Part shown: piece by piece, positions 1-26,204 of the stretch
How the letters are laid out: every line of letters begins with the position of its first letter
How positions within the stretch are numbered: the first letter of the stretch is position 1
Assembly: GCF_003019035.1 (NCBI RefSeq)
Contig: NZ_CP027447.1
DNA from: Escherichia coli
Lineage (GTDB): Bacteria > Pseudomonadota > Gammaproteobacteria > Enterobacterales > Enterobacteriaceae
Direction: 5' to 3' (one strand)
Length of the DNA: 64,000 nt
Position numbers and translations under genes: made by a program
The notes under the pieces: generated by a model
What the model saw: the letters and a program-made list of their open reading frames with translations, nothing else
What the model was told of the DNA's origin: nothing
The model's database searches: none

Positions 1-188
1 ATGGTAGTTATGCTCGGGTTTTGACTGCTCCATGTCGTTCACTGCTACTTGATCAGCAAAGCACTCCTGACAGTAAGTACCGTTTTATTCTTAAATAGAA
101 AATAACAGCTGAATTACCATGGGAGCAGAAAAAAGACAAAGGCGATATCATGCTGCGTTCTAAAATTTTAATGTAAAAGGTGATGAAC

Positions 189-290
189 ATGGCAGGGATT
201 CAGGTTATCGCAGGAAGTTTTCCTAAAGGGTGGGCAAGCATGGGGTTCGGTACCATCGTGTTTGCCACCAATCCATGGAACGATGGGTAA
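189..290 (+). other. small ORF (33 aa, MAGIQVIAGSFPKGWASMGFGTIVFATNPWNDG) with SD AAGGTG 6 nt upstream
   Basis: My own translation; good Shine-Dalgarno spacing; followed by palindrome and terminator. No recognisable family. Confidence 0.2.
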
Positions 291-410
291 TGTCTGCATT
301 TTCATAATCTGTAAGCCTTTTACAATTATTAAAAATATGGCAGGCTAGTCTGGTCTCGCGAGACTGACTGAACCTCGGTCGGCTCACAGTGCATTCCTGT
401 GGGACGATGG

Positions 411-448
411 CCAGCCCGGCTTTCGGGTGCCGGGCTGGTCGTTCTTTC
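411..448 (+). terminator. rho-independent terminator (10-bp stem CCAGCCCGGC / GCCGGGCTGG, then T-rich TCGTTCTTTC)
   Basis: Perfect inverted repeat with 8-nt loop followed by a T-rich run on the + strand. Confidence 0.55.
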
Positions 449-494
449 ATGATGCGGCAGGGATAGTGGGATTTCTGTTAATGTGGTTTAGGGA

Positions 495-710
495 TTATCC
501 GGGGTGATTGTCTGCCTTTATCTGGTCCAGGGCATAAGTGATCCCTTCAGCAAAAACAGAAGTATCGAACTGCTTTTGTATTTCCTGAAAATGAACAGTG
601 GCACGACAGATACTCAGTTCTCCGCGATGTAACCGGATAATATCTTCCAGAACATTGTTCACTGCTTCGGCACGGCGCTGATGTTCTGTTAACGTTAATC
701 GGGGATTCAT
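495..710 (-). CDS. hypothetical protein, 71 aa
   Basis: ATG preceded by strong SD (AAGGAG, 7 nt spacing) on the - strand; downstream of the NTPase gene in the same orientation. No family recognised. Confidence 0.4.
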   Translation of the reverse strand: MNPRLTLTEHQRRAEAVNNVLEDIIRLHRGELSICRATVHFQEIQKQFDTSVFAEGITYALDQIKADNHPG

Positions 711-1113
711 GATGCACTCCTTAAATGATGATTTTTATGTACTCACCGGCAAAATATTCTGCCGATTACTGAACACGCATCCGGCACCTCAGGTTTTGAT
801 TTATTCTGGTTTTTTCGATATCCCGGACCAGGTTGATCACGACCAGAAAAAGTGCCGGTATTTTATTGATACGCTGATATGGCTTCGGGATAACAGCTAT
901 ATTCGTTACTCTCAGTTGCTGGCTGTGGGAGCGGCTGATGTCGTCCTCACGGAAAAAACGCTCTGTCTGCTCAATGCCATGCCGACCTTTCTGCAGCCCC
1001 GGCCCGTACCATTTAAAGAGTTGCTTCTGGATGCAGTAAAAACCGGCGAAAATGCAGTCATCGCTGAATGCGTATCCCGGATTATGCGTTACGTGTTTAA
1101 TGAACGTAAGTGA
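709..1113 (+). CDS. hypothetical protein, 134 aa (start overlaps the divergent 71-aa ORF start; 3' end overlaps the NTPase gene 3' end)
   Basis: ORF-track ORF; weak SD-like GGGGA before ATG. Could be spurious antisense ORF. Confidence 0.25.
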   Translation: MMHSLNDDFYVLTGKIFCRLLNTHPAPQVLIYSGFFDIPDQVDHDQKKCRYFIDTLIWLRDNSYIRYSQLLAVGAADVVLTEKTLCLLNAMPTFLQPRPVPFKELLLDAVKTGENAVIAECVSRIMRYVFNERK

Positions 1114-1832
1114 GGTTTATCTGCTGTCTGCATAATCCCGATAGCCAGTGCGAGGGGAAGTAATTCCGGGGAAACTCTTTCAAACAGCGATGCCCATTCT
1201 CCTCTCGCCATCACTCTGTCCAGCCCGCCCCCCAGCTGCATTTCAGCAATCTTCCTGATTTCCCGGAACAACGCCGCTTTGATCTCTTCATGCTCAGCTT
1301 TATTTTCCGGTGTCAGAATGTATTCGTCGAAGAACCGGGGAGGCTGGTTAACGGGGATTGTGTTTACCGGGATGTGTTCCTGTTTCCCGTACTTCGGGGA
1401 CGAACAACATTCTGTTGGCTGACCGGTGAGTTTACGTAACTCCTTCATGAGCAGCTCCTGATCGTAAACTGTCATCAGTGCCGCAATGGTGGCATGCAGT
1501 GCATCGGGCAGTATCCAGGGTTGCCGGCCCGTGGGGCATATAACATCCAGTAGCTCATTCGTCCGACAGATACGCTCCTCTCCGTATGACAACAGGCCCT
1601 GTCCCGTGTATTCCTCCAGCCTGATCACTGTGCCAGCCCGTGGCTTCTGCCAGGTCGTCAGATCATCGCCACTCATACGGCGCTCATTCTCCACGTCAGC
1701 AGCATCGACAATGACGCTGTTTCCGAGTTCCTGTTTCACCACTTCCTCTATCCGCGCCAGTACGTAACTTTTACCGCTGCCCACAGGACCGGACACGGTG
1801 ACAGTGATGACCGGATTCAGTGTATGTGTCAT
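1089..1832 (-). CDS. P-loop NTPase, 247 aa, Walker A GPVGSGKS at residues 15-22 (nucleotide/polynucleotide-kinase-like N-terminus), unassigned family
   Basis: Walker A motif read directly; transcribed antisense to the phage late operon; C-terminal 130 aa without recognisable motifs. Confidence 0.6.
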   Translation of the reverse strand: MTHTLNPVITVTVSGPVGSGKSYVLARIEEVVKQELGNSVIVDAADVENERRMSGDDLTTWQKPRAGTVIRLEEYTGQGLLSYGEERICRTNELLDVICPTGRQPWILPDALHATIAALMTVYDQELLMKELRKLTGQPTECCSSPKYGKQEHIPVNTIPVNQPPRFFDEYILTPENKAEHEEIKAALFREIRKIAEMQLGGGLDRVMARGEWASLFERVSPELLPLALAIGIMQTADKPHLRSLNT

Positions 1833-1962
1833 GTTGCATTCTCCTCTGTGAATAATTCATCGTTTATCCTGCACATCCCGTATCCCCGGCTCTCTTAACG
1901 CGCTTTAAAATCCTTCGCGCCCTGTATTTGTGATGCTGTCTCCACCAGACAAGGAGACACAC
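1833..1962. promoter_or_regulatory. divergent intergenic region; 7-bp inverted repeat TGTCTCC(1937-1943)/GGAGACA(1953-1959) whose 3' arm contains the SD of the first late gene
   Basis: Inverted repeat seen directly; position corresponds to the lys late promoter of Mu-like phages. Confidence 0.3.
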
Positions 1963-2313
1963 ATGAAAAACCTGAAAAAATTCATTCCCCCTGTTAAAAA
2001 ACCTCGCCTCAGCGGCTGGCTGCTGACCTCAGTGCTGTTGCTGGGCACCATCGCTCTGGTCTCGCCACAGCAGCTGCCTGTTGTGATCTACAAGCTGGCA
2101 CTCATCACGCTGGCAGCAGTGCTGGGTTACTGGCTTGACCGTTCACTCTTCCCCAAAGCCCGTCCCGGTCAGTACCTGAAACATGAAGACAGGCTGATGG
2201 CTGAAGGGCGTTTCCCTGTGCAGACCGGCCTTCACCTTGTATTTTCTGCTGCGTTAATCCGCCGTGCACTGATTGTTGCAGCGGTCTGTCTGGCTGTGGC
2301 AACAGGACTGTGA
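1963..2313 (+). CDS. membrane protein with 2-3 predicted TM helices, putative holin (ORF-track start 1930 is GTG; ATG 1963 has SD AAGGAG)
   Basis: Hydrophobic segments in translation; directly upstream of and overlapping the endolysin gene. Confidence 0.5.
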   Translation: MKNLKKFIPPVKKPRLSGWLLTSVLLLGTIALVSPQQLPVVIYKLALITLAAVLGYWLDRSLFPKARPGQYLKHEDRLMAEGRFPVQTGLHLVFSAALIRRALIVAAVCLAVATGL

Positions 2314-3038
2314 CCATGAACTGGCCTCAAATCACCCTCATTATTCTGTTCGCCTTTGGTCTGGGCGTAACCGCCATCAGACACGGAGAACCACGTAACG
2401 ATAAATACAGCTTCTGGTGGCAGCTTGCTGGCAACCTGGTGATTGTCTGGCTGCTCTGGTGTGGCGGCTTCTTCAGTCAGGCCCGCGCAGCGCAGCCTCC
2501 GCAGGCTGCGCTGCAGTATCGCGATGATGTGATCCGTAATGCCCGGCTTGAATGGGGACTGTCTGCGCCGGTGGCCGATTTCGCTGCGCAACTGCATCAG
2601 GAAAGCGGCTGGCGACCTGATGCGGTCTCGCCGGCTGGCGCTCAGGGACTGGCGCAGTTCATGCCCGCCACTGCTGACTGGATAAGTCAGCTGATGCCGG
2701 GGCTTAACAGCCGTGAGCCGTTTAATCCGGCATGGGCCATCCGGGCGCTGGTCAGCTATGACCGCTGGCTGTGGCAGCGCGTCAGCGCCGCCAGTGACTG
2801 CGAACGTATGGCCATGACACTGTCGGGCTATAACGGTGGTCTGGGCTGGGTACAACGGGACAGGCAGCTAGCATCACAGAAAGGCCTGGACAGTACCCGC
2901 TGGTTCGGGCATGTCGCCACGGTGAATGCCGGACGCAATGCTGCCAGCTGGCGGGAGAACCGCCATTATCCGCAGCGCATCCTGCACGAACTGGCCCCCC
3001 GTTATCTGACATGGGGGGGCGGCAGCTGTGTGGACTAA
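2310..3038 (+). CDS. endolysin: lytic transglycosylase (SLT-domain) with N-terminal hydrophobic anchor, SAR-type candidate (alternative start ATG 2316)
   Basis: SLT-like catalytic region (QLHQESGW...GAQGLAQFMPATA); N-terminal hydrophobic stretches. Confidence 0.7.
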   Translation: MTMNWPQITLIILFAFGLGVTAIRHGEPRNDKYSFWWQLAGNLVIVWLLWCGGFFSQARAAQPPQAALQYRDDVIRNARLEWGLSAPVADFAAQLHQESGWRPDAVSPAGAQGLAQFMPATADWISQLMPGLNSREPFNPAWAIRALVSYDRWLWQRVSAASDCERMAMTLSGYNGGLGWVQRDRQLASQKGLDSTRWFGHVATVNAGRNAASWRENRHYPQRILHELAPRYLTWGGGSCVD

Positions 3039-3681
3039 CCTGCTAAAAAATCTGCCGTGGCGCAGTCTGCTGCTGGCTGTGCTCATAAATGCTTTTCTGA
3101 TTGGACTTTATTACCTGGGCTACAAAAGCGGGCATGAAAACGCCACGCGCGACGGCGATAAGGCGATCAGTGAGTTGCAGTCAGCATTCGACACATACAA
3201 AACGGAGCAGGCAATGCTTGAGAACGCTGCGTTGCGAGCATGGGCAAAACGGTATCAGGAGCAGGTGGCCGCCGGGCAGCGGGCTGAAGCCGGTTATCTT
3301 GAGCAGATTGCTCAACTGGAGAGCCGGAACAAACAACTACAGGGGCAAATTAACGATGTCACACAGCGCTGGATTGATGAAAAAGGTAAGAGCCATCCCA
3401 TTGAGTGCGTGTTTACTCGCGGTTTCGTGCGCCAGTACAACGCCGCACTCGGGTATGACAACGCATCCGTCGACACCGGTCATTCAGACGCAACTGCCGC
3501 CGCTGGCACCGGCACTGGCGCAGCGACCGGGCAACCTGAAACCGCTGACGCCCGGTTACGCAATTCGGGTGTCTCCCAGCGTGACGTCCTCGCCAACATC
3601 ATCGACAACGCAGGGCAATGTCGTCGCTGGCGAAACCAGATAAACGCGCTGCTGGATGAACGGGAAGGATTACAGAAATGA
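3028..3681 (+). CDS. i-spanin (Rz-like): N-terminal TM helix plus coiled-coil periplasmic domain (GTG start in ORF track)
   Basis: N-terminal TM (LLLAVLINAFLIGLYYLGY), coiled-coil region, and position directly after endolysin. Confidence 0.5.
   Translation: MWTNLLKNLPWRSLLLAVLINAFLIGLYYLGYKSGHENATRDGDKAISELQSAFDTYKTEQAMLENAALRAWAKRYQEQVAAGQRAEAGYLEQIAQLESRNKQLQGQINDVTQRWIDEKGKSHPIECVFTRGFVRQYNAALGYDNASVDTGHSDATAAAGTGTGAATGQPETADARLRNSGVSQRDVLANIIDNAGQCRRWRNQINALLDEREGLQK
3377..3643 (+). CDS. o-spanin (Rz1-like) lipoprotein, 88 aa, entirely embedded in the +1 frame of the i-spanin gene
   Basis: MKKVRAIPLSACLLAVSC signal/lipobox-like N-terminus followed by proline-rich sequence; ORF-track ORF 3101..3643 trimmed to internal ATG 3377. 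Confidence 0.45.
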   Translation: MKKVRAIPLSACLLAVSCASTTPHSGMTTHPSTPVIQTQLPPLAPALAQRPGNLKPLTPGYAIRVSPSVTSSPTSSTTQGNVVAGETR

Positions 3682-4004: not shown

Positions 4005-4315
4005 TGGTCGATATTACCCGGGTACGCCGCGAATCCCTGCGCTGGAGTCTGCTGGTTGCCCTGAACAAAACCCGCCCTTACACCGCCAGCGAAACGTTGC
4101 TGCTGGACGTGTCCCGTGCCATCTACCCGGACACCACGCAACTGGAGCTGCGCCGGGAGCTTGATTATCTGGCAGATCGCAAAATGGTGGAGCTGGAGAA
4201 GAGACCGTCCGGTGACTGGTTTGCCGATCTGAGTCGCCTTGGTGTGGATATTGTGGAATACACCGTGGAATGCGGCCCGGGTATTGCCCGCCCGGAAAAA
4301 TACTGGAGTGAGTGA
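4004..4315 (+). CDS. hypothetical phage protein, 103 aa
   Basis: SD GGAGG before ATG; within the late operon. Confidence 0.4.
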   Translation: MVDITRVRRESLRWSLLVALNKTRPYTASETLLLDVSRAIYPDTTQLELRRELDYLADRKMVELEKRPSGDWFADLSRLGVDIVEYTVECGPGIARPEKYWSE

Positions 4316-4317
4316 TT

Positions 4318-4866
4318 ATGGGACGTCGCAGCAGCATTGATTCTCTGCCGACGGAGGTCCGCCGCTGGCTGGAGCGGGCACTGACGGAGAATAACTTCAG
4401 TGGATATGCCCGGCTGGAAGCCCTGCTGAAGGAGAAGGGATACGTCATCACCCGCTCTTCCCTGCAGCGGTTTGGCTACAAAATGGAGCGACAACTGGCC
4501 CGCATCCGCGCCGCCACCGAGGCCGCGCGTCTGATGGCGCAGGAAGCCGGTGACGAGGCGGACGATCGTTCTGCCGGGATGATGGCACTGATTCAGACCG
4601 AGATGCTGGATGTTCTGATGCGTCTGCAGGAAATCGGGGAAAGTGATGATCCTGCAAAACGCGCAAAACTGCTGGCCACTGCTTCGGAAAGTATAGCCAC
4701 ACTGGTACGGGCTTCGGTGACCCACAAGCGATTCCGGGCCGAGGTGCTGGCAAAAATTGAGGCGCGGATGAATGCTCTGGAAAAACAGGCGAAGTCCGGC
4801 GACACCCGCCTGAGTCTGGAAACCCTGAAGATGGTGCGGGAACAGATTTACGGGGTGATCTCATGA
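4318..4866 (+). CDS. DUF3486-like protein, Mu gp27 position (putative small terminase subunit); ORF-track start 4312 is GTG
   Basis: Position immediately upstream of large terminase and resemblance to Mu-type gp27 from memory. Confidence 0.55.
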   Translation: MGRRSSIDSLPTEVRRWLERALTENNFSGYARLEALLKEKGYVITRSSLQRFGYKMERQLARIRAATEAARLMAQEAGDEADDRSAGMMALIQTEMLDVLMRLQEIGESDDPAKRAKLLATASESIATLVRASVTHKRFRAEVLAKIEARMNALEKQAKSGDTRLSLETLKMVREQIYGVIS

Positions 4867-6179
4867 CAGCGGCCATTCAGCTGTATCCCTATCAGCAGTC
4901 GTGGTTTCTGGATCGTGCCCGTTTCAAGATTGGTATGTTTGCCCGTCAGACGGGCAAGACGTTCACCACCACGCTGGAACTGGTTGATGACTGTTTTGAA
5001 ACGGAGGCCTCAGGGGGACGTACACGCTGGGTGATCCTCTCGCGCGGGGAGCGTCAGGCAAAAGAAGCCATGGTGGAGGGGGTGAAAAAACACTGCAGCG
5101 CCTACCGGATGGCGGCCCGTGAGGTGGAAAGTTATTACCGTGCTGAAAGCGGCGAACGCTACACCATGCTTGAGGTGGAGTTACCCGGCGGCTCCCGTAT
5201 CACGGCCCTGCCGGCGAATCCCGACACGGCTCGTGGGTTTGCGGCTAACGTCTTTCTGGATGAGTTCGCCTTCCATGCCGACAGTCGCAAAATCTGGACC
5301 GCTCTGTTTCCGGTCATTTCCAACGGCTACAGACTGCGTGTGACATCGACACCGAACGGCAAGGGAAACAAGTTTTATGAACTGATGACCAGCAACGCCC
5401 TTGAAAATGTCTGGTCACGTCACATCGTGGATATTTACCGTGCCGTGCGTGATGGTCTGCCGCGGGATATTGCACAGATGCGACAGGCGCTCAACGATGA
5501 TGACGCCTGGGCACAGGAGTTTGAACTGAAGTGGCTGGATGAGGCATCGGCCTGGCTGACGTTTGAACTGATTGACGGCGTGGAGCACGATGCTGCCGGG
5601 CTGCCGGTGCACTATACGGGTGGCCCCTGCTTTGTGGGGGTGGATATTGCTGTTCGTAATGACCTGTTTGTCATCTGGGTGCTTGAACAGGTGGGGGATG
5701 TCTACTGGACCCGGGAAATCATCACCCGTAAACGGGCCACCTTTGCTGAGCAGGATGCTTTGCTGGATGACGTATTTTTCCGTTACCGCGTGCTGCGCTG
5801 CTGTATGGATCAGACCGGGATGGGAGAAAAGCCGGTGGAGGATGCACAGGGTCGCCATGGCAGAAGCCGTGTGGAGGGGGTGATATTTAACAGCCCGAAC
5901 AAGCTCACCCTCGCGACCCGTGGCAGGGAGATGTTTGAGGACCGCCGCCTGCGTATTCCGGCGGGAGATGTGGTCCTGCGCAGTGATCTGCATAAACTTC
6001 GCAAGGTTACCGGGCCTACCGGAACTCCCCGCTTTGTGGCCGAAAGTGATGCAGCAGGTCACGCCGACCGCACATGGGCCTGTTTTCTGGCAATAAACGC
6101 CACTGACGGACCGTCAGGGCCGGTGATGGCCCGTTCGCGTCACCGCCGTGAGGCTGGTCATATACTGGAGGGATTCTGA
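4863..6179 (+). CDS. terminase large subunit, 438 aa
   Basis: N-terminal ATPase motif (FARQTGKT) and position before the portal gene. Confidence 0.8.
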   Translation: MTAAIQLYPYQQSWFLDRARFKIGMFARQTGKTFTTTLELVDDCFETEASGGRTRWVILSRGERQAKEAMVEGVKKHCSAYRMAAREVESYYRAESGERYTMLEVELPGGSRITALPANPDTARGFAANVFLDEFAFHADSRKIWTALFPVISNGYRLRVTSTPNGKGNKFYELMTSNALENVWSRHIVDIYRAVRDGLPRDIAQMRQALNDDDAWAQEFELKWLDEASAWLTFELIDGVEHDAAGLPVHYTGGPCFVGVDIAVRNDLFVIWVLEQVGDVYWTREIITRKRATFAEQDALLDDVFFRYRVLRCCMDQTGMGEKPVEDAQGRHGRSRVEGVIFNSPNKLTLATRGREMFEDRRLRIPAGDVVLRSDLHKLRKVTGPTGTPRFVAESDAAGHADRTWACFLAINATDGPSGPVMARSRHRREAGHILEGF

Positions 6180-7675
6180 TGGCGAGGGGTATCTGGGTTT
6201 CACCCGATGAATTTGTTGCTTTTTCTGAGCCTCAGAAATCACTGACCGCGCAGATTGCCTCCCGCAGCCGCGCGATCGACTTTTACGGACTGGGCATGTA
6301 TCTGCCCAATCCTGATCCCATTCTCAAGGCTCAGGGACGGGATATCCGTATCTACCGCGAACTGCGCACCGACCCGCTGGTCGGGGGCTGTATCCGCAGA
6401 CGTAAAGCAGCGCTCAAATCGCTGGAGCGTGGACTGGAGCGCGGTCACGCTTCTGCCCGGGTCTTCCGTTTCATCCGCGACATGCTCGACGATCTGGATC
6501 TGTCCCGCATCATCGGTGAGATGAGCGATGCCGTGCTCTACGGGTATCAGCCCTGTGAAATCATGTGGGGCCGTTCGGTCAGGGCGTGGGCGGTGACGGA
6601 TATTGTCGGCAAACCGCCTGAGTGGTTTCAGTTTGATACGGACAACTGCCTGCGCTTCCGGGCGCGTGATGCGGGTGTGGAGGGTGAGCTGCTGTCACCG
6701 TCAAAATTCGTGGTGCCGGCACAGGATGCCTCGTATGACAATCCTTACGGTTTCCCTGACCTGTCCATGTGCTTCTGGCCGGTCGCCTTCAAGAAAGGCG
6801 GGATGAAATTCTGGCTCCGCTTTGCCGAAAAGTTTGGCTCCCCATGGGTGATCGGTAAGCACCCGAGGGGTGCAAATGATGCAGAGATTGAAAAACTGCT
6901 GGACTCCATGGAGCAGATGGTGGAGGACGCGGTGGCCGCCATCCCTGATGACAGCAGCATCGAACTCAAAGCAGCGGATGGCAAGGCGGACAGCAGCGAG
7001 GTATTCCGCGAGCTGATCACACTGTCACGCAGTGAGATCTCCATTGCATTACTCGGTCAGAATCAGACCACGGAAGCGAACAGTAACAAGGCCTCTGCAC
7101 AGGCCGGGCTGGAGGTGACGGCTGATATCCGCGATGCGGATGCGGACATCATTCAGGCGGCAGTGAATCAGGTCATAAGAACGGTGGTCACCCTGAACTT
7201 CGGCGATGTGCCGTGTCCGGTCTGGGCCATGTGGGAACAGGAGGCCATTGATGACACCCGTGCCACCCGCGACGAAAAACTCACCCGGGCGGGTCTGCGT
7301 CTGACCCCGCAATACTTCAAGCGTGAGTACCAGCTGCAGGACGGCGATATTGACGAGACACCACCGTCAGAACGCGAGAAGAACATGCTGCCGCTGTCAT
7401 TTGCCGAGGCGATTGATGCCGATATTCAGGCTCAACAGCAGCTTGACGACGCGCTGGACATTCTGATGAACGGAGGTGTGTTAAATGGCACGCTGGAACC
7501 CGTCCTGGCACCTCTGTTTAAGCGGGTCGAAAACGGGGTTAACCCGTCTGAGCTGCTGGGCGAACTGGCGGAGCTCTACCCTCAGATGAACACGGACGAT
7601 CTGCAGGAACGGCTGGCCCGCATTCTCTTTGTGGCAAATATCCGGGGGCGTCTGCATGAGCGTGACAACGGCTGA
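6179..7675 (+). CDS. portal protein (Mu gp29-like, DUF935 family), 498 aa
   Basis: Size, order and family resemblance. Confidence 0.75.
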   Translation: MARGIWVSPDEFVAFSEPQKSLTAQIASRSRAIDFYGLGMYLPNPDPILKAQGRDIRIYRELRTDPLVGGCIRRRKAALKSLERGLERGHASARVFRFIRDMLDDLDLSRIIGEMSDAVLYGYQPCEIMWGRSVRAWAVTDIVGKPPEWFQFDTDNCLRFRARDAGVEGELLSPSKFVVPAQDASYDNPYGFPDLSMCFWPVAFKKGGMKFWLRFAEKFGSPWVIGKHPRGANDAEIEKLLDSMEQMVEDAVAAIPDDSSIELKAADGKADSSEVFRELITLSRSEISIALLGQNQTTEANSNKASAQAGLEVTADIRDADADIIQAAVNQVIRTVVTLNFGDVPCPVWAMWEQEAIDDTRATRDEKLTRAGLRLTPQYFKREYQLQDGDIDETPPSEREKNMLPLSFAEAIDADIQAQQQLDDALDILMNGGVLNGTLEPVLAPLFKRVENGVNPSELLGELAELYPQMNTDDLQERLARILFVANIRGRLHERDNG

Positions 7676-8938: not shown

Positions 8939-9152
8939 GTTTTCTCTCTTCAGGCGGGTGATTTATCATTGCCAGCGAATGAGGGGCTGTATTACCTTTA
9001 TAAAGGCTTTACAGCCTCTGTTTTATAACCGCTTCCGGTTCACCGCATTGCTTTCCCTGTCCTTCTCCCCTGATGTTTTCTAAAGCAGATTAAAATCGCC
9101 GGGCCTGCATTTCTCACAAACTGTCTCCGACAACATAACGCGGGACAGCAAA
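8939..9152 (+). promoter_or_regulatory. 214-bp intergenic region inside the head operon with an imperfect palindrome centred on TTTATAAA; candidate late promoter (position of Mu PI)
   Basis: Long gap in an otherwise tightly packed operon; palindrome seen at ~8985-9020. Confidence 0.3.
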
Positions 9153-14976: not shown

Positions 14977-14998
14977 GGGGCTCCGGCCCCTTCTTTTT
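14977..14998 (+). terminator. rho-independent terminator GGGGC-TCCG-GCCCC followed by TTCTTTTT
   Basis: GC stem plus T-tract read directly. Confidence 0.6.
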
Positions 14999-15066
14999 AA
15001 TCCCCTTTAATATCCGTCACGTCCACCGCCAGACATACTGCTCTGAATTTACAAAGGAGTATGATC

Positions 15067-18043: not shown

Positions 18044-18927
18044 TGTTTGCCGTACTGGGTGATATTGAGTTTGAACTGATTACCTACTGGGACGGCTTCG
18101 AGGCCACGTTTGGCGTCGATTATGCGGAGCATGCCCGCATCGAGGGTAAACCCGGCCTGCAGTTCGTCGGCGACAGGCTGGACGAAATCCAGATAAGCCT
18201 GGTCTTCCATCAGCATTATTGTGTGCCCGACGTGGAGCTGGCGAGAGTGCGAACAGCCATGAAGGCCCATCAGGCACTGGCGCTGGTCTTCGGCAACGGT
18301 GACTATCGCGGCTGGTTCGTGATTACCGATGTGACCGCAACCAGCGAGCAGACAGACAGCACCGGTAACGTGCTGGCTGTCAGTGCCACCGTGTCTCTCC
18401 GGGAATACACCGGTGACCCGAAAAATCCTCTGCAACCGCCGGCAATACGCAGGCAGGTTCCCGGTGCCGGGGCCGTATCTGGTGCTGTTCCATCGCCTTC
18501 CGGGGTGGCGCAGTTCGTCCGTAACGGCGTCAACTATGCGAAACAGGCGCAGTCTGTACTCCAGACCACCATCAGTGCCGTTCGGGTGGCACAGAAAATG
18601 AAGGGTAACCCTGTTGTCGCGCTGACCCGTGTACCGGGACTGATGAGCGGACTGGGTAATATATCCGTGGCTCTGGGGAAAAGTGTTCCGGCGTTTAATG
18701 CACTCTCTGAATCCATGCCCGATGCCATCAGTCTGGCCAGAACAGCCAGTGAGGCAGCCACGTATGTACAGCAGGCGCAGTCGGCGCTGAGTGGTGTGGA
18801 CAAAAGAAATATTGCAGGTGCTCTGGATACCGTTTCCGGGCAGCTTAACGCCGCCGGCACAGCATTCAACCGCATGTCTCCGGGATTAAGTGCAATGGCC
18901 GCCAGAATACTGACGAGGAGTGTGTGA
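18043..18927 (+). CDS. tail protein (Mu N / DNA-circulation-like)
   Basis: Order after tape measure; family resemblance from memory. Confidence 0.5.
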   Translation: MFAVLGDIEFELITYWDGFEATFGVDYAEHARIEGKPGLQFVGDRLDEIQISLVFHQHYCVPDVELARVRTAMKAHQALALVFGNGDYRGWFVITDVTATSEQTDSTGNVLAVSATVSLREYTGDPKNPLQPPAIRRQVPGAGAVSGAVPSPSGVAQFVRNGVNYAKQAQSVLQTTISAVRVAQKMKGNPVVALTRVPGLMSGLGNISVALGKSVPAFNALSESMPDAISLARTASEAATYVQQAQSALSGVDKRNIAGALDTVSGQLNAAGTAFNRMSPGLSAMAARILTRSV

Positions 18928-19139
18928 TGTTTCTTGAACATATTACCCGTGACGGAGAGCGCTGGGATTCGCTGGCATGGCAGTACTACGGTGACCCGCT
19001 GGGCTATCCCCGGATTATTGCAGCCAATCCGCACGTGGCCATTACGCCGGTGCTGCCCTCCGGGTTGTTGTTACTGATCCCGGTTATTGAGGCTGAAGAT
19101 GCCCGTACAGAAGAGGATATTGCCCCATGGCTGAGATAA
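18927..19139 (+). CDS. tail protein X-like (LysM-like small tail protein)
   Basis: Small protein between N-like and D-like genes resembling P2 gpX. Confidence 0.45.
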   Translation: MFLEHITRDGERWDSLAWQYYGDPLGYPRIIAANPHVAITPVLPSGLLLLIPVIEAEDARTEEDIAPWLR

Positions 19140-20281
19140 ACAGTACTGCGCAAGCCACATCAGCGTTAACCGGCGTCAGCGATGTGCTGACGCCGGTATT
19201 CACTCTGTGGTATCTGCAGAAAAACATCACCTCTGATATCGCGCCTTATGTCACCCGTGTGGTCTGGAGCGATAACATCAAAAATGAGTCCGATACCATT
19301 GAGGTGGAGCTGGACGACACCGATGGCCGCTGGCTGGATAAGTGGTATCCGGGCAAGGGTGACACGCTGACGCTGAAAATGGGTTATCAGGGCGAGAAAC
19401 TGCTGTCCTGCGGTACATTCTCAATAGACGAGATCGAAGTGAGTTCGCCCGCGTCCGTTGTCGCTATCCGTGGGGTGGCCACCTCGGTTAACAGTGCTCT
19501 GCGGACTAAATCCAGCCGTGGTTTTGAGAACACCACGCTGGCAGCTGTTGCGGGGCGGATTGCCAGAAAGCACCGGCTGAAACTGGTGGGCAGCATTGAG
19601 TCCATCAGAATCGACCGGGTGACCCAGTATGCTGAAACCGACGTGGGTTTTCTGCGCCGGCTGGCCAGCGAGTATGGTTATGCAGTGAAAGTGGTCAGTG
19701 ACCAGTTGATTTTTTCTCATCTGGCCACACTGCGCAGTCAGGAGCCGGTCAGGCAGTTAAAACCGCAGGATGTGGCCTGCTTTTCCCTGCGTGACACCAT
19801 CAACCGGGTCTATAAATCTGCAAAGGTAAAACACCAGAAAAGCAGCAGTAAAAAACTGATCGTCTACGAAGCTGATGGTGGTACCCGTGAAAGCGACAAA
19901 AAGCTCAAAGGCGGTAAGGTTACCAGCGCTGACTCACTTAAAGTTAACAGCCGCGTCAGCGACCCGGACAGTGCCCGGATTAAAGCGGATTCAGCACTGG
20001 CCAGACATAACGAATACCAGCAGAACGGCTCCCTGACGCTGACGGGAACGCCTCAACTGACAGCAGGCAACAAAATTGAACTGGTGGGCTTTGGACAGTT
20101 ATCCGGTCCATGGCTGATAATCACTGCCCGCCATGCGTTTGAGCGTAACAGCGGCTACACCACAGAGCTGGAAGTGGCACGGGGGCCAGTCACAAGAGGG
20201 AAAAAACAAAAAACTCAGAAACTCACGGTTTATCACCCGGATGGCAGTACATCGACGGTGATTAAGGAGAAGAAAAAATGA
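19127..20281 (+). CDS. tail/baseplate hub protein (P2 gpD-like / Mu P-like), 384 aa
   Basis: Order and family resemblance. Confidence 0.65.
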   Translation: MAEINSTAQATSALTGVSDVLTPVFTLWYLQKNITSDIAPYVTRVVWSDNIKNESDTIEVELDDTDGRWLDKWYPGKGDTLTLKMGYQGEKLLSCGTFSIDEIEVSSPASVVAIRGVATSVNSALRTKSSRGFENTTLAAVAGRIARKHRLKLVGSIESIRIDRVTQYAETDVGFLRRLASEYGYAVKVVSDQLIFSHLATLRSQEPVRQLKPQDVACFSLRDTINRVYKSAKVKHQKSSSKKLIVYEADGGTRESDKKLKGGKVTSADSLKVNSRVSDPDSARIKADSALARHNEYQQNGSLTLTGTPQLTAGNKIELVGFGQLSGPWLIITARHAFERNSGYTTELEVARGPVTRGKKQKTQKLTVYHPDGSTSTVIKEKKK

Positions 20282-20805
20282 CTGGTGTCACCCGTCAGAT
20301 CGGTACGGTCAGTGCCGTTGATGCCGACAGGGTTCAGGCCCGCGTTCGTCTGCCTGAATGCGATAATCTGCGCACAAACTGGCTTAACGTGCTACAGCGC
20401 AATACCCAGGATAACAAGGATTACTGGCTCCCTGACGTGGGGGAGCAGGTTGAGGTGCTGCTCGATGCCAACGGCGAGGATGGTGTTATTCTGGGCGCGG
20501 TGTACTCAGACGTCGATAAACCGCCGTTCAGTGATAAAAACGTCCGGGGTACGAAATACGCTGATGGCGCGGAGTTCAGTTATAACCGCGCGACCCATAC
20601 GCTGACGGTCAGAGGAGGTATTGAGCGTATCGTGGTGGAGGTTGCCGCTGATATCTCTCTCAAAGGGAAAAAACTCGACCTCACGGGAGTTACCACGATC
20701 AACGGCCCCGCGACACTCAATGGTGATCTGGAAATCAACGGAAGCGCCCATGCAACGGGTAACATATTTGCTGATGGTCAGAACTCTAATCACCATTCCC
20801 ATTGA
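20278..20805 (+). CDS. baseplate assembly protein V (spike), 175 aa
   Basis: gpV-like sequence. Confidence 0.7.
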   Translation: MTGVTRQIGTVSAVDADRVQARVRLPECDNLRTNWLNVLQRNTQDNKDYWLPDVGEQVEVLLDANGEDGVILGAVYSDVDKPPFSDKNVRGTKYADGAEFSYNRATHTLTVRGGIERIVVEVAADISLKGKKLDLTGVTTINGPATLNGDLEINGSAHATGNIFADGQNSNHHSH

Positions 20806-20861
20806 ACCTTCTTAAACGCCTTTAATATCGGCGCTTACTTCCCGGGGGCAATACTGCCTCC

Positions 20862-21209
20862 ATGAAAACGACCTCAGTATTCTGGCAACCAGCTCTGCAG
20901 GCTCCCGGCGAAATCGTCCGGGGGCTGGATGATATCCGGCAGTCCATCCAGATCATCCTGCGGACTCCCCGCGGCAGCGACCCGCATCGCCCGGAGTTCG
21001 GCAGCAATCTGCACCTTTATATCGACTGGCCTGTCGACCGGGCCATTCCGCATGTGGTTCGCGAATCCGTCGATGCCATCAGGCGCTGGGAACCCCGCTG
21101 CCAGCTTATGTCGGTTAAACCCGCCGTCGACGGCGAACATCTTACGCTCCGGGTGAGCTGGAAAGGCTCAGACGGACAACCCCGTACTCAGGAACTGCTA
21201 TGGCGCTGA
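20862..21209 (+). CDS. baseplate wedge protein gpW/gp25-like, 115 aa
   Basis: GPW_gp25-like sequence. Confidence 0.7.
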   Translation: MKTTSVFWQPALQAPGEIVRGLDDIRQSIQIILRTPRGSDPHRPEFGSNLHLYIDWPVDRAIPHVVRESVDAIRRWEPRCQLMSVKPAVDGEHLTLRVSWKGSDGQPRTQELLWR

Positions 21210-22303
21210 CAGAACCCGATTTTATTGAACGCGATGCCGATAAAATCACGGCAGAAATGATTGCGAAGTATGAAGAGGATACCGGAAAAACGCTGTACCC
21301 GGCACAGGCTGAACGTCTGCTGATTGACCTGTGGGCCTATCGCGAAATGCTGGTCAGGGTGGCAGTACAGGAGGCGGCGAAGCAGAATCTGGTCGCTTTT
21401 TCCCGTGAGCCGATGATTGATTACCTCGGTGAACTGGTCGGTGTATACCGCCTTGCCGCGCAGCCTGCCACCACCACACTTCAGTTCTCTGTGGATGAGG
21501 CACTGGCCATTGATGTGCTGATCCCGGCAGGCACCCGCGTCAGCGCTTCCGACAGTATTATTTTTGCCACCGATACAGACGTGGTGCTGAAGGCCGGATT
21601 GCTGCTGGTCAATGTCACGGCCACCTGTACCGAGCCGGGTACCGCTGGCAACGGCTGGCAACCGGCGCAGGTCAGTCAGTTACTCGATGAGATTGATAAC
21701 ATTGACCTGCTGGTGACCAATCTGACGGCCAGCTCTGGCGGTTCAGAGCAGGAAGACGATGACCGGCTCCGGGAGCGTATCAGGCTGGCCCCGGAGTCAT
21801 TCACCAATGCCGGAAGCCGTGGTGCATACCGTTTTCATGCTATGGGGGCGCATCCCGGCATTGTCGACGTTGCTGTTCTTTCTCCCGCTCCCGGCACTGT
21901 CGAGCTGTATCCGCTGCTCAGCACTGGTCTGCCGGACAGCAGTATCCTCACTCTGGTAGAGAGTTTCTGTTCTGACGAAAAAGTCAGACCACTCACTGAT
22001 ACCGTGCGGGCTAAAACACCTGTTCAGGTGGATTACACCATTGAAGCCAGGATTACGATCTATCGTGATCAGGATGCAAGGTTGGTAAAGGACAACGCTA
22101 ACAGCGCCATACAGAACTGGGTGGCATCCCGTACCGCCACGCTGGGGCGCGATATTGTTCCCAGCCAGATTATCAGCGTGTTGTCCGTTTCCGGGGTGTA
22201 CCAGGTCGAACTGGTGACACCGGCACTGAGGGTGGTGGCAGAAAACGAATGGGCAAACTGTACGGCGATCACTCTTAACATGACCGGGGTGTCCGATGGC
22301 TAA
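21200..22303 (+). CDS. baseplate protein J-like, 367 aa
   Basis: Baseplate_J-like sequence and order. Confidence 0.8.
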   Translation: MALTEPDFIERDADKITAEMIAKYEEDTGKTLYPAQAERLLIDLWAYREMLVRVAVQEAAKQNLVAFSREPMIDYLGELVGVYRLAAQPATTTLQFSVDEALAIDVLIPAGTRVSASDSIIFATDTDVVLKAGLLLVNVTATCTEPGTAGNGWQPAQVSQLLDEIDNIDLLVTNLTASSGGSEQEDDDRLRERIRLAPESFTNAGSRGAYRFHAMGAHPGIVDVAVLSPAPGTVELYPLLSTGLPDSSILTLVESFCSDEKVRPLTDTVRAKTPVQVDYTIEARITIYRDQDARLVKDNANSAIQNWVASRTATLGRDIVPSQIISVLSVSGVYQVELVTPALRVVAENEWANCTAITLNMTGVSDG

Positions 22304-22874
22304 GGTGCTACAACTCCCGCCACCGCTTGAGGGTGATATCAGTCTCAGAACGCTGGGAAGACTGGCCGGACGGCTGGATAACATCGACCTGAGCGTACTG
22401 ATGGTCGGTCTCGTCGATATTGTCGACAGTTCCGCGCTGCCATGGCTTGGCGAGCAGTTCTCGCTGTTCGGCGATGGCTGGGAACTGGCGGAATCGGACG
22501 ATGTACGCCGCATGCTTATCAAATCCGCTATCGAGCTACACCGCTATAAAGGAACACCGTGGTCAATCCGGGAAATTATCCGCCGTTTTGGCTTCGGCGA
22601 AGTGGATCTGATTGAAGGTACGGGGCAGATTGGCTATGACGGCAGACACACGTACAACGGGCTTTTCGTCCATGGTGATGCACAAGCCTGGGCAGTCTAT
22701 CGCGTCATCTTTCAACAACCCATCACTAACGATCAGGCGGCGCTGTTACGTCAGACGCTTGCTGCCTTTGCTCCGGCTCGCTGTCATCTGGCAAGTCTGG
22801 AATATCAGTCTGTCGCCATTCGATACAACAGTACTACCTGTTATGACGGTAGTTACAACCACGGGAGCAGTTAA
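22296..22874 (+). CDS. tail protein I-like (P2 gpI / Mu gp48-like), 192 aa
   Basis: Family resemblance and order. Confidence 0.7.
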   Translation: MAKVLQLPPPLEGDISLRTLGRLAGRLDNIDLSVLMVGLVDIVDSSALPWLGEQFSLFGDGWELAESDDVRRMLIKSAIELHRYKGTPWSIREIIRRFGFGEVDLIEGTGQIGYDGRHTYNGLFVHGDAQAWAVYRVIFQQPITNDQAALLRQTLAAFAPARCHLASLEYQSVAIRYNSTTCYDGSYNHGSS

Positions 22875-22876: not shown

Positions 22877-23845
22877 ATGGCAAATCTACCCGAAACCCCG
22901 CAGTGGGAAAGCGGCATCTACCAGATTGAGGTCTCTGACCCCGTTCTGGGCGGACCTGACGGAATTTCTAACCGCCAGGCTAAACAACTGGCCAGCCGAA
23001 CGTCATACCTCAAACAGAAGGTCGAAAAAAGCGGAACAGACCTGGCTGCACATATCGCGGCAGTTGACCCGCATACCCAGTACGCGACGAAAGCCAGTCC
23101 GACATTCACCGGCACACCAACAGCACCTACACCTGCAAATGGTGATAACAGCAAAAAGCTGGCGACGACGGAGTTTGTGGCCAAAGCACTTGCGGCACTT
23201 GCAGGCAGCGCCCCTGAGACACTGGATACGCTTAAAGAGCTGGCTGACGCTCTCGGTAATGATCCAAACTTTGCGACTACGGTACTGAACAAGCTGGCGG
23301 AAAAGCTGGCTAAAGACCAGAACGGCGCAGATATTCCTGAGCCTGCGCTGTTTGTCAAAAACCTTGGTTTGGGGGAAGGCTCTGCACTGCCCGTTGGTGT
23401 GCCCGTTCCGTGGCCCTTAGCAACACCACCAACGGGCTGGCTGAAATGTAACGGTGCAGCATTTTCTTCTGAAATGTACCCCAAACTGGCAAAAGCCTAC
23501 CCCGCGAATAAATTACCGGATTTACGCGGAGAATTTATCCGTGGCTGGGATGATGGGCGAGGAATTGATGCGGCACGCGCTTTATTGAGCATTCAAAACG
23601 GGATGTTGGAAAAACACCGCCATATTGTTGTAGCTAACGATGGATATGACACAAAAGATGAATGGGAGTTGGCTACGATTTTCAAAAAAACATATACACA
23701 AGGCAGGGGGCTTGATGCCACAAATACAGGAGGGAGTTTGACTCCATCACCAACGCTTCATTCACGAGGAAGTATTGGTAACACAGGTGGTAGTGAAACC
23801 CGCCCCCGCAATATTGCATTTAACTATATCGTGAGGGCGGCTTAG
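22877..23845 (+). CDS. tail fibre protein: constant N-terminal part fused to the variable C-terminal part currently in the + orientation
   Basis: Tail-fibre-like N-terminus; C-terminal ~155 aa lie inside the invertible segment. Confidence 0.75.
   Translation: MANLPETPQWESGIYQIEVSDPVLGGPDGISNRQAKQLASRTSYLKQKVEKSGTDLAAHIAAVDPHTQYATKASPTFTGTPTAPTPANGDNSKKLATTEFVAKALAALAGSAPETLDTLKELADALGNDPNFATTVLNKLAEKLAKDQNGADIPEPALFVKNLGLGEGSALPVGVPVPWPLATPPTGWLKCNGAAFSSEMYPKLAKAYPANKLPDLRGEFIRGWDDGRGIDAARALLSIQNGMLEKHRHIVVANDGYDTKDEWELATIFKKTYTQGRGLDATNTGGSLTPSPTLHSRGSIGNTGGSETRPRNIAFNYIVRAA
23361..23386 (+). other. gix/hix-like recombination site, left (TTGTCAAAAACCTTGGTTTGGGGGAA)
   Basis: Matches the AAACC-NN-GGTTT core of Gin/Hin sites; sits at the outer edge of the long inverted repeat. 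Confidence 0.55.
23371..23569 (+). repeat. inverted repeat, left copy (~200 bp, high identity to reverse complement of 24772..24978)
   Basis: Direct comparison of the two stretches; both encode GEGSALPVGVPVPWP...GRGID. Confidence 0.8.
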
Positions 23846-23851: not shown

Positions 23852-24469
23852 TCAACTGGCTGCTGCCAGAGGCATTTCCGGCCAGTTGATATCCGGTGCA
23901 GTGCTGATGTCAGTCGCATTAAGCACATCTATGAAATCAAGCACGGCGTTTAGTTTTTCCGTCTCCTGGGGCGTCAATCGGCGTCCGGCTCGTAGTTTGA
24001 GATTTATAAGCTCAACAGATGCCATTGCCTGTTCCTCAAGTTGCTGACGATGCACTCCGGCAGCTTCCAGTTCTGCTGCGTGCTGTCGTCCCGCATCTGT
24101 CACCCAGGTCTCACCATCCCAGACATCATAGATAGTAGCTGGCTGTTTCACCGTCGTATCAGGAGGGTAATCTCCCGGTTGTGTGATTTGCACAGCGTTA
24201 CCATTCTCTGTGCTGTAAACCGTTTCGCCTCTGTGGTCTGGAACATATTTCCAGATGTTCTGGTCGGTATCACGACAGACAGCGAAGCCGGGGCGTTTTT
24301 CTGGTGGCGCGTCAATGCATGAGTGAGCCGGAATTCCAACACCATAAGCGAGATACTCAACAGTGGCAGAGAGATATTCACGGTTTTCAGCATCGTAGTT
24401 ATAAACGGTAATATCGCCTGCAGTTATAGCGATACCATTCTGATCAAGTACTGCAGCAGCATTATTCAT
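23852..24469 (-). CDS. tail fibre assembly protein (Tfa/U-like), 205 aa
   Basis: Tfa-like sequence; start overlaps stop of the inverted alternative fibre segment. Confidence 0.7.
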   Translation of the reverse strand: MNNAAAVLDQNGIAITAGDITVYNYDAENREYLSATVEYLAYGVGIPAHSCIDAPPEKRPGFAVCRDTDQNIWKYVPDHRGETVYSTENGNAVQITQPGDYPPDTTVKQPATIYDVWDGETWVTDAGRQHAAELEAAGVHRQQLEEQAMASVELINLKLRAGRRLTPQETEKLNAVLDFIDVLNATDISTAPDINWPEMPLAAAS

Positions 24470-24972
24470 TAAGTAGCCCTTACAATATAGTTAAACGCAA
24501 TATTACGGGGGCGGTTTTCCGTTCCTGTATTCCCTCCGTTGGCACCTAATCTATAAACACCACGAGTGCCAATAGCACGTAGTGAAGATGGAACTTTTAC
24601 ACCTGACTCATCTGTTTTAACAATCCCGCCATCACCGTATGTAGCCAGTATACCAGGGTTTGTTCCTGCACGGGTGCTATTTGCGGCAAGCCCTTCACCA
24701 GTCCATAACTCCATATAGTGAATATGATCTATAACCGAATGTGATTGTGCATTAAGCAAGGAACGCCCTGAATCAATTCCCCGCCCGTCATCCCAGCCGC
24801 GAATAAACTCACCCCGTAAATCCGGTAATTTATTCGCGGGGTAGGCTTTTGCCAGTTTGGGGTACATTTCAGAAGAAAATGCTGCACCGTTACATTTCAG
24901 CCACCCTGCTGGCGGTGTGGCTGAGGGCCACGGAACGGGCACACCAACGGGCAGTGCAGAGCCTTCCCCCAA
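24469..24972 (-). CDS. alternative tail fibre C-terminal segment (silent in this orientation; no own start expected)
   Basis: First 65 aa near-identical to internal part of the + strand fibre; different C-terminal ~100 aa ending in the same RPRNIAFNYIVRA motif. Confidence 0.65.
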   Translation of the reverse strand: MGEGSALPVGVPVPWPSATPPAGWLKCNGAAFSSEMYPKLAKAYPANKLPDLRGEFIRGWDDGRGIDSGRSLLNAQSHSVIDHIHYMELWTGEGLAANSTRAGTNPGILATYGDGGIVKTDESGVKVPSSLRAIGTRGVYRLGANGGNTGTENRPRNIAFNYIVRAT

Positions 24973-24978
24973 ACCAAC
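24772..24978 (-). repeat. inverted repeat, right copy
   Basis: Reverse complement matches 23371..23569. Confidence 0.8.
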
Positions 24979-24988
24979 GTTTTCGTCT
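24963..24988 (-). other. gix/hix-like recombination site, right (reads GACGAAAACGTTGGTTTGGGGGAA on the - strand)
   Basis: Same AAAC-NN-GGTTT core in inverted orientation. Confidence 0.5.
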
Positions 24989-25043
24989 TAACTCCCACCT
25001 ATACCAGCTATGTATTTTTAACAAAACAAAGAGGATATTTTTC

Positions 25044-25616
25044 ATGCAAATTGGCTACATTCGTGTGTCAACAAATGACCAGAATACAGATTTACAACGA
25101 AACGCACTGAACTGCGCAGGATGTGAACTGATTTTTGAGGATAAAATCAGCGGAACAAAGTCAGCCCGACCGGGATTGAAAAAGCTGCTCAGAACGTTAT
25201 CAGAAGGAGATACGCTCGTTGTCTGGAAGCTGGACAGGCTGGGCAGAAGCATGAAACACCTCATCACTCTTATTGAGGAACTGCGGGAAAAAGGGGTTAA
25301 CTTCCGTAGTCTTACAGACAGCATTGATACGTCAACACCCATGGGACGTTTCTTTTTTCACGTCATGGGGGCTTTAGCGGAAATGGAGCGTGAATTAATA
25401 GTTGAACGAACACTGGCCGGACTTGAAGCAGCACGTGCACAGGGGCGTATTGGTGGACGTCGTCCGAAACTGACAAAAGAGCAACATGAACAAATAGCAA
25501 GGCTGATCAAAAATGGCTATAGCAGGAAACAGTTGGCAATTATTTACGATATCGGTATATCGACGATTTATCGTTATCACCCTGTAGAGGAACTTCAAAC
25601 TCAAGCTGAGTTGTAA
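25044..25616 (+). CDS. Gin/Pin/Hin-family serine DNA invertase, 190 aa
   Basis: N-terminal MQIGYIRVSTNDQ catalytic-serine motif and near-identity of long blocks to Gin/Pin as I remember them; SD AAGAGGA. Confidence 0.85.
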   Translation: MQIGYIRVSTNDQNTDLQRNALNCAGCELIFEDKISGTKSARPGLKKLLRTLSEGDTLVVWKLDRLGRSMKHLITLIEELREKGVNFRSLTDSIDTSTPMGRFFFHVMGALAEMERELIVERTLAGLEAARAQGRIGGRRPKLTKEQHEQIARLIKNGYSRKQLAIIYDIGISTIYRYHPVEELQTQAEL

Positions 25617-25691
25617 TTCTTTTTCTGATATTGAAATGCCGCGGCGATGTAATTTATCTCACGGAAATAGGTACGTTTATCGCGCGGCGCA

Positions 25692-26204
25692 TCAATTCCT
25701 TTGTAAATCCAGCAAATCATCAATGCCAGTTTCACTTGCGGTATAAAAACTATCGGACTGAAAAACACACGGGCGACCTTGCTGATTAAAGGTCATCAGA
25801 ATCAAAAACGCGTTAGGTGCCAGACCATTTCCTGAAATACCCCGCCAGATAACCAGATCCTGAATGCCGTTACGATCAAGATCGGCACGGTAAAGTTGCG
25901 CATTACCCGCCATATTTTGCAGCACCCCCACAGGCACAGACCAGGATTTACCGGCGCGATCTTTACCGTTCAATTGCCATTCACTATCATCATTTGGCAT
26001 CTTTTCAAGCGTCACGCCAGCAACGCCGACTTTTCTAAAATGCCAGGTTTGCTCGGCATCATAAGGCATGGTCAGGAGAGGTTTCAGCGCCCGCTTTTGC
26101 GCGTATTCGCTGTCACTCATCGGCAGATATTCGGTAAAGCTGGTGGCCTGTGCAGGCAGCACTAAGCTCAATAAAAAAGCGCACATCCCTGTTCTGATGT
26201 TCAA
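25692..26204 (-). CDS. secreted hypothetical protein, 170 aa (signal peptide ...LSLVLPAQA), between invertase and hycI
   Basis: Signal-peptide-like N-terminus; TTG at 26204 or ATG at 26186 as start. No family recognised. Confidence 0.5.
   Translation of the reverse strand: MNIRTGMCAFLLSLVLPAQATSFTEYLPMSDSEYAQKRALKPLLTMPYDAEQTWHFRKVGVAGVTLEKMPNDDSEWQLNGKDRAGKSWSVPVGVLQNMAGNAQLYRADLDRNGIQDLVIWRGISGNGLAPNAFLILMTFNQQGRPCVFQSDSFYTASETGIDDLLDLQRN

Follow-up and report, generated by a model that had tools for sequence, protein, structure and literature searches.

What kind of prophage adjoins the hyc locus of Escherichia coli, and by what route did it arrive there? The question is raised by a stretch of 64,000 nucleotides of contig NZ_CP027447.1 (assembly GCF_003019035.1), called the window below, which opens with phage genes and continues into host DNA. 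An earlier note on this sequence had described a Mu-like prophage abutting hyc at 1-25700, either a divergent member of the Mu family or a partly decayed element. Our analysis indicates that the element is very probably a temperate transposable myovirus of the BcepMu type, integrated beside hyc. The location given in the note holds, position 25700 being the last base of a 6-bp target duplication (25695-25700). Its place in the Mu family gives way to the BcepMu lineage, and the suggestion of decay to a prophage whose modules are all intact and which has near-identical copies at many sites.

Assignment to the BcepMu lineage

Gene calls were named by Pfam and PHROGs, and identities to BcepMu and Mu come from a gene-by-gene tblastn comparison of the 53 genes of the element. 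Matches to BcepMu were found for 36 of these genes, in the same order, whereas 10 match Mu (Mor, GemA, Gam, the large terminase, the portal, F, G, a weak J, a fibre fragment and Gin). No tblastn match links the transposase and ATPase of the element to MuA and MuB. In the published account of BcepMu (PMC2771037), the transposase is of the Tn552/IS1604 type, the bottom strand carries genes 1-13 and lysogeny is controlled at the strand switch. The element has the same layout: its bottom strand bears the early and regulatory genes and its top strand those for lysis, head and tail, with the lysogeny control at the interface. GenBank files a 94%-identical relative, PhiKM, under the genus Bcepmuvirus.

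The start of the window falls inside the prophage, leaving the left 10,560 bp outside it. Contigs bearing the same element were found through exact-protein look-ups, and the left part was taken from the draft assembly GCA_041349135.1 (contig ABUDOY010000002.1). This contig has 1 mismatch to window 1-11832 and none across both stretches used in the reconstruction, and it carries the prophage at the same site, between ascB and hycI. The whole element, reconstructed from this one near-identical contig, measures 36,254 bp, of which the window holds the right-hand 71%. Contigs that share 99.8-99.99% identity with the window contain the early region (rve, AAA_22, Gam, GemA and Mor).

Just left of the window, a cI-like repressor on the top strand (39% identity to BcepMu gp17) is followed 3' on the same strand by a gene of 328 amino acids (aa), whose last 98 nt open the window. 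The bottom-strand early genes run leftward through a small helix-turn-helix protein, a winged-helix protein, a DUF3102 protein, the transposase, the ATPase and Gam, and the operon then continues with several small open reading frames (ORFs), GemA and Mor; a 210-aa ORF lies beside the left end. The transposase (589 aa) is of the DDE type with an rve core, the only domain that Pfam recognizes in it, and is 68% identical over 581 aa to BcepMu gp09. It has no sequence match to solved MuA structures, and its IS481/IS21 matches in NCBIfam are all sub-threshold. The adjoining AAA+ ATPase (388 aa, Pfam AAA_22) shares 59% identity with BcepMu gp08. The gene pair for transposase and ATPase was found in 627 of 5,426 complete E. 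coli genomes, a single genome having as many as 3 copies.

These results bear on several claims of the earlier note. The repressor and transposase genes and the TG terminus that it advised looking for left of the window were found in the near-identical contig. It had seen antisense genes and no plus-strand activator ahead of the lysis genes, which we also observe: the ORFs at 1089-1832 and 495-710, before the holin gene, are on the minus strand. It had read them as antisense cargo in the place of a late activator, and this we do not retain: the ORFs at 495-1832 belong to phage protein families, and Mor lies at the far left end. Antisense genes fit the normal layout here, since the early operon of the BcepMu type is wholly on the bottom strand (PMC2771037). 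The gene order of the late region, which the note had likened to that of Mu, is confirmed by Pfam and PHROGs; the head module is Mu-like and the tail module P2-like, as in BcepMu. The remark that mom is lacking at the right end is correct, as only 78 bp follow the last gene and neither com nor mom is present. The invertase and the invertible fibre segment at the right end were absent from that note.

Ends, target duplications and mobility

The termini of the element read 5'-TGATCA...CATCA-3'. The left end (5'-TGATCAGACATGAGATAAATG) is fixed by 10 contigs that share the left 13 kb at 99.1-100% identity and diverge at exactly one base into 10 unrelated host contexts. Each end carries a pair of GAGATAAAT-type repeats (GATAAA core) about 23 bp apart, in mirror orientation, so that the GATAAA-type repeats at 25652-25660 and 25676-25683 mirror the two GAGATAAAT repeats of the left end. 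They are reminiscent of the 23-bp terminal repeats that have been described in BcepMu and phiE255.

A 6-bp duplication flanks all seven insertions analysed, namely the one in the window and six in complete genomes. The latter are those of strains 12089 (TCTGGC, inside another prophage), A31 (GCTTTT, rlmI), M-17 (TCCAGC, otsA), CFS3292 (ATGCAT, malZ-proY interval), IGC_RcoliRes_1.1 (GCTGCA, adeP) and NR301 (CATATG, hydN-hycI interval). This length is the published footprint of B3/Tn552-family transposases (PMC8705779), and the duplication fits a Tn552/B3-type transposase. Neither a tyrosine integrase nor a Phage_integrase domain appears in any gene list of the element, and the junctions show the 6-bp duplication only, with no att site. 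Insertion by transposition with TG...CA termini, as the earlier note expected, is borne out by the DDE transposase, the end sequences and the 10 host contexts; the expected duplication of 5 bp is not. Since near-identical copies occur at many loci, the prophage appears to have been recently mobile.

Extent and insertion site

Megablast searches against the 5,426 complete genomes assign window 1-25694 to the prophage and make 25695 the first host base, from which hycI to hycE is 98.5-100% identical to other E. coli genomes. Strain SCU-301 is free of the prophage at this site, and window 25695-64000 is 99.98-100% identical to it. The alignment to a prophage-free strain that the earlier note had recommended therefore confirms the boundary, while another of its checks, a comparison of base composition with the flanking host DNA, is uninformative: G+C content fails to separate the prophage from the hyc region. 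The empty site of SCU-301 reads GGCCATTCCTTTG, the left junction in the near-identical contig ...GGCCATTCCT/TGATCA and the right junction in the window CATCA/ATTCCTTTG (slashes mark the limits of the prophage). Comparing the empty site with the two junctions gives the duplication as ATTCCT, 6 bp.

The insertion, between ascB and hycI, lies 535 bp downstream of the latter. The sole gene split is a small host gene of 251 aa; the hyc operon is intact, and the boundaries (right end at 25694, ATTCCT, 36,254 bp) show that it was itself left untouched. The split gene has a signal-peptide-like N-terminus, is annotated as hypothetical only and has no match in PADLOC. Searched as DNA, the prophage/host junction matches none of the 5,426 complete E. 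coli genomes, so that the insertion is clone-specific. The truncated host protein of 164 aa was also looked up by exact sequence, to count the assemblies with the junction, and returned no match. The window holds no tRNA, and a scan of 1-26500 with Rfam found no RNA family.

A second BcepMu-like prophage occurs in strain NR301 (NZ_AP040196), which lacks ascGFB; it is an independent insertion in the hydN-hycI interval, about 1.3 kb from hycI, with the duplication CATATG. We considered an insertion hot spot near hyc and rejected it, as two independent insertions in the hydN-hycI interval are, by a rough estimate, about what chance would give among several hundred. The coincidence is thus probably due to chance.

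Alternative explanations

Could the element still belong to the Mu lineage proper, as a divergent Muvirus-like phage with MuA/MuB-type transposition and 5-bp duplications? Its proteins do match Mor, GemA, Gam (63%), F (48%), G, the portal and Gin (75%) of Mu, the head genes follow the Mu order and the termini are TG...CA. Yet MuA and MuB find no counterpart by tblastn, the transposase showing the rve core only, and the count of matching genes favours BcepMu. The early operon is inverted, the tail genes are of P2 type and the duplication is of 6 bp without exception. We regard this reading as highly improbable and, at the level of sequence, as already refuted. The P2-like tail module, and the related prophage that NR301 carries in the hydN-hycI interval, would rather suit a P2-like prophage inserted by a site-specific integrase at an att site near hyc. 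Across the element, however, there is no tyrosine integrase and the sole recombinase is the 190-aa invertase, while the NR301 insertion used a different target with its own duplication. The same phage is also found at at least 10 unrelated loci, and the junction of the window recurs in none of the complete genomes. We give this explanation practically no probability, and the junction analysis has already refuted it. The earlier note had named an integrase with att sites, instead of a transposase, as the finding that would speak against a transposable phage; none was found in the gene lists of the element, and the reading is left standing because neither an integrase nor a tRNA is present.

A temperate transposable myovirus of the BcepMu type could also be defective or decaying in this strain, no longer inducible or infective, which we consider quite unlikely. 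Relatives have 2-5 extra fibre cassettes that are lost here, the fibre assembly gene is antisense in the present orientation and the large terminase is of an unusual 438-aa allele, all of which would suit a defective prophage. Against it, no module is missing and the ORFs are as long as in the relatives, the lost fibre cassettes being the only reduction, both ends and the duplication are intact, and the left 13 kb recur nearly unchanged at 10 different sites. The terminase has complete N and C domains, and its 438-aa form recurs in strain 12089.

Some points count against the BcepMu-type assignment or against parts of it. The large terminase allele is divergent, with only 24% identity to BcepMu gp28. 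No more than two cassettes are left in the invertible region, and as it now lies the assembly gene is antisense. The left junction, the transposase and the repressor come from the near-identical draft GCA_041349135.1 and not from the genome of the window itself. The late promoters discussed below are assigned by motif position only, and the activity of the phage (induction, replicative transposition, host DNA on virion ends) is predicted.

Gene content of the window

The features of the prophage part of the window are collected in Table 1. The head module is Mu-like and the tail module P2-like. Among prophages that are otherwise 94-98% identical, the large terminase has 438 aa in some (the window, 12089) and 507-531 aa in others (M-17, CFS3292, NR301, PhiKM). 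These two alleles look like the outcome of a module swap inside the head operon.

Table 1. Features of the prophage and of its right-hand junction, in window coordinates.
Feature	Position	Strand	Evidence
328-aa accessory gene, 3' end (phrog_10002)	1..98	+	maps to related-locus gene 2379-3365; PHROG match
71-aa ORF (phrog_4490)	495..710	-	PHROG match
134-aa candidate ORF (phrog_2266)	709..1113	+	PHROG match
247-aa protein (phrog_3787), N-terminal Walker-A GPVGSGKS, invariant	1089..1832	-	PHROG match
candidate activator-dependent late promoter element TTAAAATCC	1905..1913	+	5' of holin gene
holin (Holin_2-3)	1963..2313	+	Pfam E=1e-40; 54% identity to BcepMu gp21
SLT-domain endolysin (lytic transglycosylase)	2310..3038	+	Pfam SLT; 59% identity to BcepMu gp22
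Rz-like spanin component	3028..3681	+	31% identity to BcepMu gp23 region
putative Rz1-like embedded out-of-frame proline-rich ORF, lipobox-like signal MKKVRAIPLSACLLAVSC...	3377..3643	+	as BcepMu gp24; inferred
two small conserved genes, 108 aa and 103 aa	3678..4315	+	homologues of BcepMu gp25, gp26; 52%, 57% identity
small terminase, Mu gp27 family	4312..4866	+	Pfam Phage_Mu_Gp27 E=6e-44
large terminase, 438-aa allele	4863..6179	+	Pfam Terminase_6N and Terminase_6C, both complete
Mu-type portal protein	6179..7675	+	Pfam Portal_Mu E=3e-90
Mu F-like minor head protein	7656..8477	+	Pfam Phage_Mu_F; 48% identity to Mu gp30
Mu G-like virion morphogenesis protein	8480..8938	+	Pfam Phage_tail_S
terminator-like hairpin after gene G	9004..9017	+	
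candidate late promoter element	9090..9098	+	5' of protease/scaffold gene
head maturation protease/scaffold (Mu I equivalent)	9153..10268	+	phrog_976 E=2e-163; 49% identity to BcepMu gp32
major head protein	10283..11236	+	phrog_1005; 44% identity to BcepMu gp34
cement protein (DUF2190), Mu gp36-like adaptor, Gp37, 84-aa protein	11246..12747	+	Pfam Phage_cement_2, Phage_Mu_Gp36, Gp37
tail sheath	12737..14164	+	Pfam Phage_sheath_1, Phage_sheath_1C; 77% identity to BcepMu gp39
tail tube (P2 FII type) and 93-aa protein	14164..14969	+	Pfam Phage_tube
best terminator-like hairpin of the region, GGGGCTCCGGCCCC then T run	14976..14991	+	
candidate late promoter element	15007..15015	+	5' of tail chaperone and tape-measure genes
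tail assembly chaperone (P2 gpE type)	15061..15402	+	Pfam Phage_TAC_7
tape measure protein	15578..18043	+	Pfam PhageMin_Tail
P2-type gpU, gpX, gpD, gpV (baseplate hub/spike)	18043..20805	+	Pfam Phage_P2_GpU, Phage_GPD, Phage_base_V; 40-60% identity to BcepMu gp45-48
candidate late promoter element	20822..20830	+	5' of baseplate genes (gpW)
baseplate gpW, gpJ, gpI	20862..22874	+	precomputed Pfam GPW_gp25, Baseplate_J, Tail_P2_I on identical proteins; 54-62% identity to BcepMu gp49-51
tail fibre: constant N-terminal part and expressed C-terminal cassette	22877..23845	+	Pfam Collar; N-terminus 55% identical to BcepMu gp52
left 26-bp gix-like crossover site TTGTCAAAAACCTTGGTTTGGGGGAA	23352..23377	+	aligned with Mu gixL, gixR
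invertible tail-fibre segment	23352..24989	.	212-nt inverted repeats 23358-23569 / 24772-24983, 93% complementary
tail fibre assembly protein	23852..24469	-	Pfam Caudo_TAP; antisense to fibre gene in present orientation
silent alternative fibre C-terminal cassette, 167 aa	24469..24972	-	Collar domain on identical protein in relatives
right gix-like crossover site, reverse complement AAGACGAAAACGTTGGTTTGGGGGAA	24964..24989	-	aligned with Mu gix
serine DNA invertase, Gin/Hin/Pin/Cin type, 190 aa	25044..25616	+	Pfam Resolvase E=2e-51, HTH_7 E=1e-13; 75% identity to Mu Gin
right phage end ...GCGCGGCGCATCA-3'	25617..25694	.	same end sequence in 6 other insertions
target-site duplication, right copy, ATTCCT (6 bp)	25695..25700	.	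empty site SCU-301 and left junction of near-identical contig
split host gene, N-terminal 164 codons of 251 aa	25695..26186	-	between ascB and hycI

Candidate late promoters and proposed working

The motif TTAA(A/T)ATC(C/G) occurs four times in the 25.7 kb, always on the plus strand and always between genes, where about 0.4 copies per strand are expected by estimate. Related motifs are found at the equivalent gaps of BcepMu, and terminator-like hairpins lie just 5' of the second and third copies. Judging by their position, the four elements look like the -10 regions of activator-dependent promoters, and in this group of phages they may mark the late promoters that depend on Mor. A scan for sigma-70 promoters did no better on the region than on shuffled sequence.

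The phage may work as follows. The cI-like repressor would keep the divergent leftward early operon off, and upon induction the transposase and the ATPase would replicate the genome by transposition. The Mor-family activator encoded at the far left end would then turn on four top-strand late units, marked by the elements at 1905, 9090, 15007 and 20822. Headful packaging would pick up flanking host DNA, and the invertase would flip 23352-24989, altering the fibre tip and with it the host range.

Invertible tail-fibre segment

The region 23352-24989 is predicted to be a host-range switch like the G segment of Mu. Its two gix-like sites stand in inverted orientation at the outer edges of the repeats, and they align base for base with Mu gix around a TT core. 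With two crossover sites only, the copy in the window should be a simple two-state switch. Its relatives have 3-6 promoterless C-terminal cassettes in differing orders, sometimes at a single chromosomal site. In the family it is thus a multiple-inversion system, and the copy in the window is a reduced version with two sites. The two-cassette form was seen in one orientation only, and tail-fibre inversions have been reported in E. coli prophages of the Bcepmuvirus type (bioRxiv 10.1101/2022.05.07.487787).

The assembly collection indexes the exact 190-aa sequence of the invertase in 9,580 blocks. These include enterobacterial chromosomes of 4.7-4.8 Mb with differing cassette orders at a single insertion site, and such differences are direct evidence of in vivo shuffling in the relatives. 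The only assembly gene is antisense to the expressed fibre gene, so that the two would be co-transcribed only after inversion; relatives are found in both states.

Accessory genes

The ORFs at 1-1832 are accessory genes in a variable slot that separates the immunity region from the lysis cassette, and all four belong to PHROG families without known function. Relatives have a Dam methylase where this prophage has the 328-aa gene. The 134-aa ORF runs into both of its neighbours, sharing 25 nt with the 3' end of the 247-aa gene and 2 nt with the 5' end of the 71-aa gene. Its variable sites, few in number, fall on codon positions as 6/6/4, and as this shows no third-position bias the ORF may not be a real gene. 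In the 247-aa gene the substitutions (28/23/42) have the third-position excess that supports coding. Homologues of its product are E. coli hypothetical proteins only, and distant relatives share just the first 75 residues or so. Pfam gives sub-threshold AAA matches only, and the AlphaFold model (predicted local distance difference test score 43) is too poor for use. PADLOC found no defence-system match for the accessory ORFs. That the slot between repressor and lysis genes is an exchangeable module, serving lysogenic conversion or the exclusion of other phages, is a possibility that we consider rather unlikely.

Host flank

On the host side, the window lacks about 305 bp relative to SCU-301 at 52259-52269 (genes 50874-52579, minus strand), with 11 bp of microhomology at the junction. 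The gap covers the 3' end of the gene for subunit B of a hydroxyarylic acid decarboxylase and the start of that for subunit C. Since subunit B is thereby shortened to 112 aa, the BCD decarboxylase is probably inactive.

Comparison with known systems

This type of prophage is already known, its family, architecture, transposase type and E. coli members having all been described. Such prophages are easily mislabelled as Mu-like, which raises wrong expectations, namely MuA/MuB, a 5-bp duplication, mom and top-strand early genes. Because the type is widespread and appears recently mobile, it could plausibly give rise to insertional mutations and add to the diversity of tail fibres, although it is nothing new in kind.

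The likeness to Burkholderia phage BcepMu (NC_005882) and to phiE255, of the genus Bcepmuvirus, begins with the bottom-strand early cluster, which has Mor and GemA at the extreme left. With BcepMu the element further shares the Tn552/IS1604-type rve transposase (68%), the ExeA-like ATPase (59%) and the cI-like repressor at the strand switch. The holin, the SLT endolysin, the Rz with its embedded Rz1, and the Mu-like head and P2-like tail follow in the same order, and the ends are TG...CA with short terminal repeats. The E. coli prophage differs in having a Mu-type Gam (63% identical to that of Mu), which BcepMu lacks, and, at the right end, a Gin-type invertase with an invertible fibre segment in the place of the acyltransferase of BcepMu. 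It also differs in its large terminase allele (24% identity) and in its accessory genes, at either end as well as between repressor and lysis genes.

Closer relatives are the prophage of E. coli strain 12089 (97.5% identity over 98%) and, as the nearest deposited phages, Escherichia phage PhiKM (PQ738613; 94% nucleotide identity over 78% of the query, or about 80% of window 1-25000) and Klebsiella phage KP12 (OM835952; 86% identity, about 80% of window 1-25000). PhiKM, KP12 and the E. coli BcepMu-like prophages have the same gene order, ends and invertase. They differ in the insertion site, the accessory slot and the number of fibre cassettes, and some of them in the terminase allele.

With Mu (NC_000929) the element shares the transposable lifestyle, the TG...CA ends, Mor/C, GemA, Gam and the head order from gp27 to gp37, as well as the logic of the G segment, with its Gin invertase (75% identity) and 26-bp gix sites. 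It differs from Mu in lacking MuA, MuB, com and mom, in its inverted early operon and P2-type tail proteins, in a duplication of 6 bp against 5 bp, and in having one assembly gene where Mu has the pair U and U'. In the Min (plasmid p15B), Cin (P1) and Pin (e14) systems, a serine invertase lies beside promoterless fibre C-terminal cassettes that are parted by crossover sites. The family of this prophage resembles them in combining an invertase with shuffled promoterless cassettes, whereas the copy in the window differs in having two sites only.

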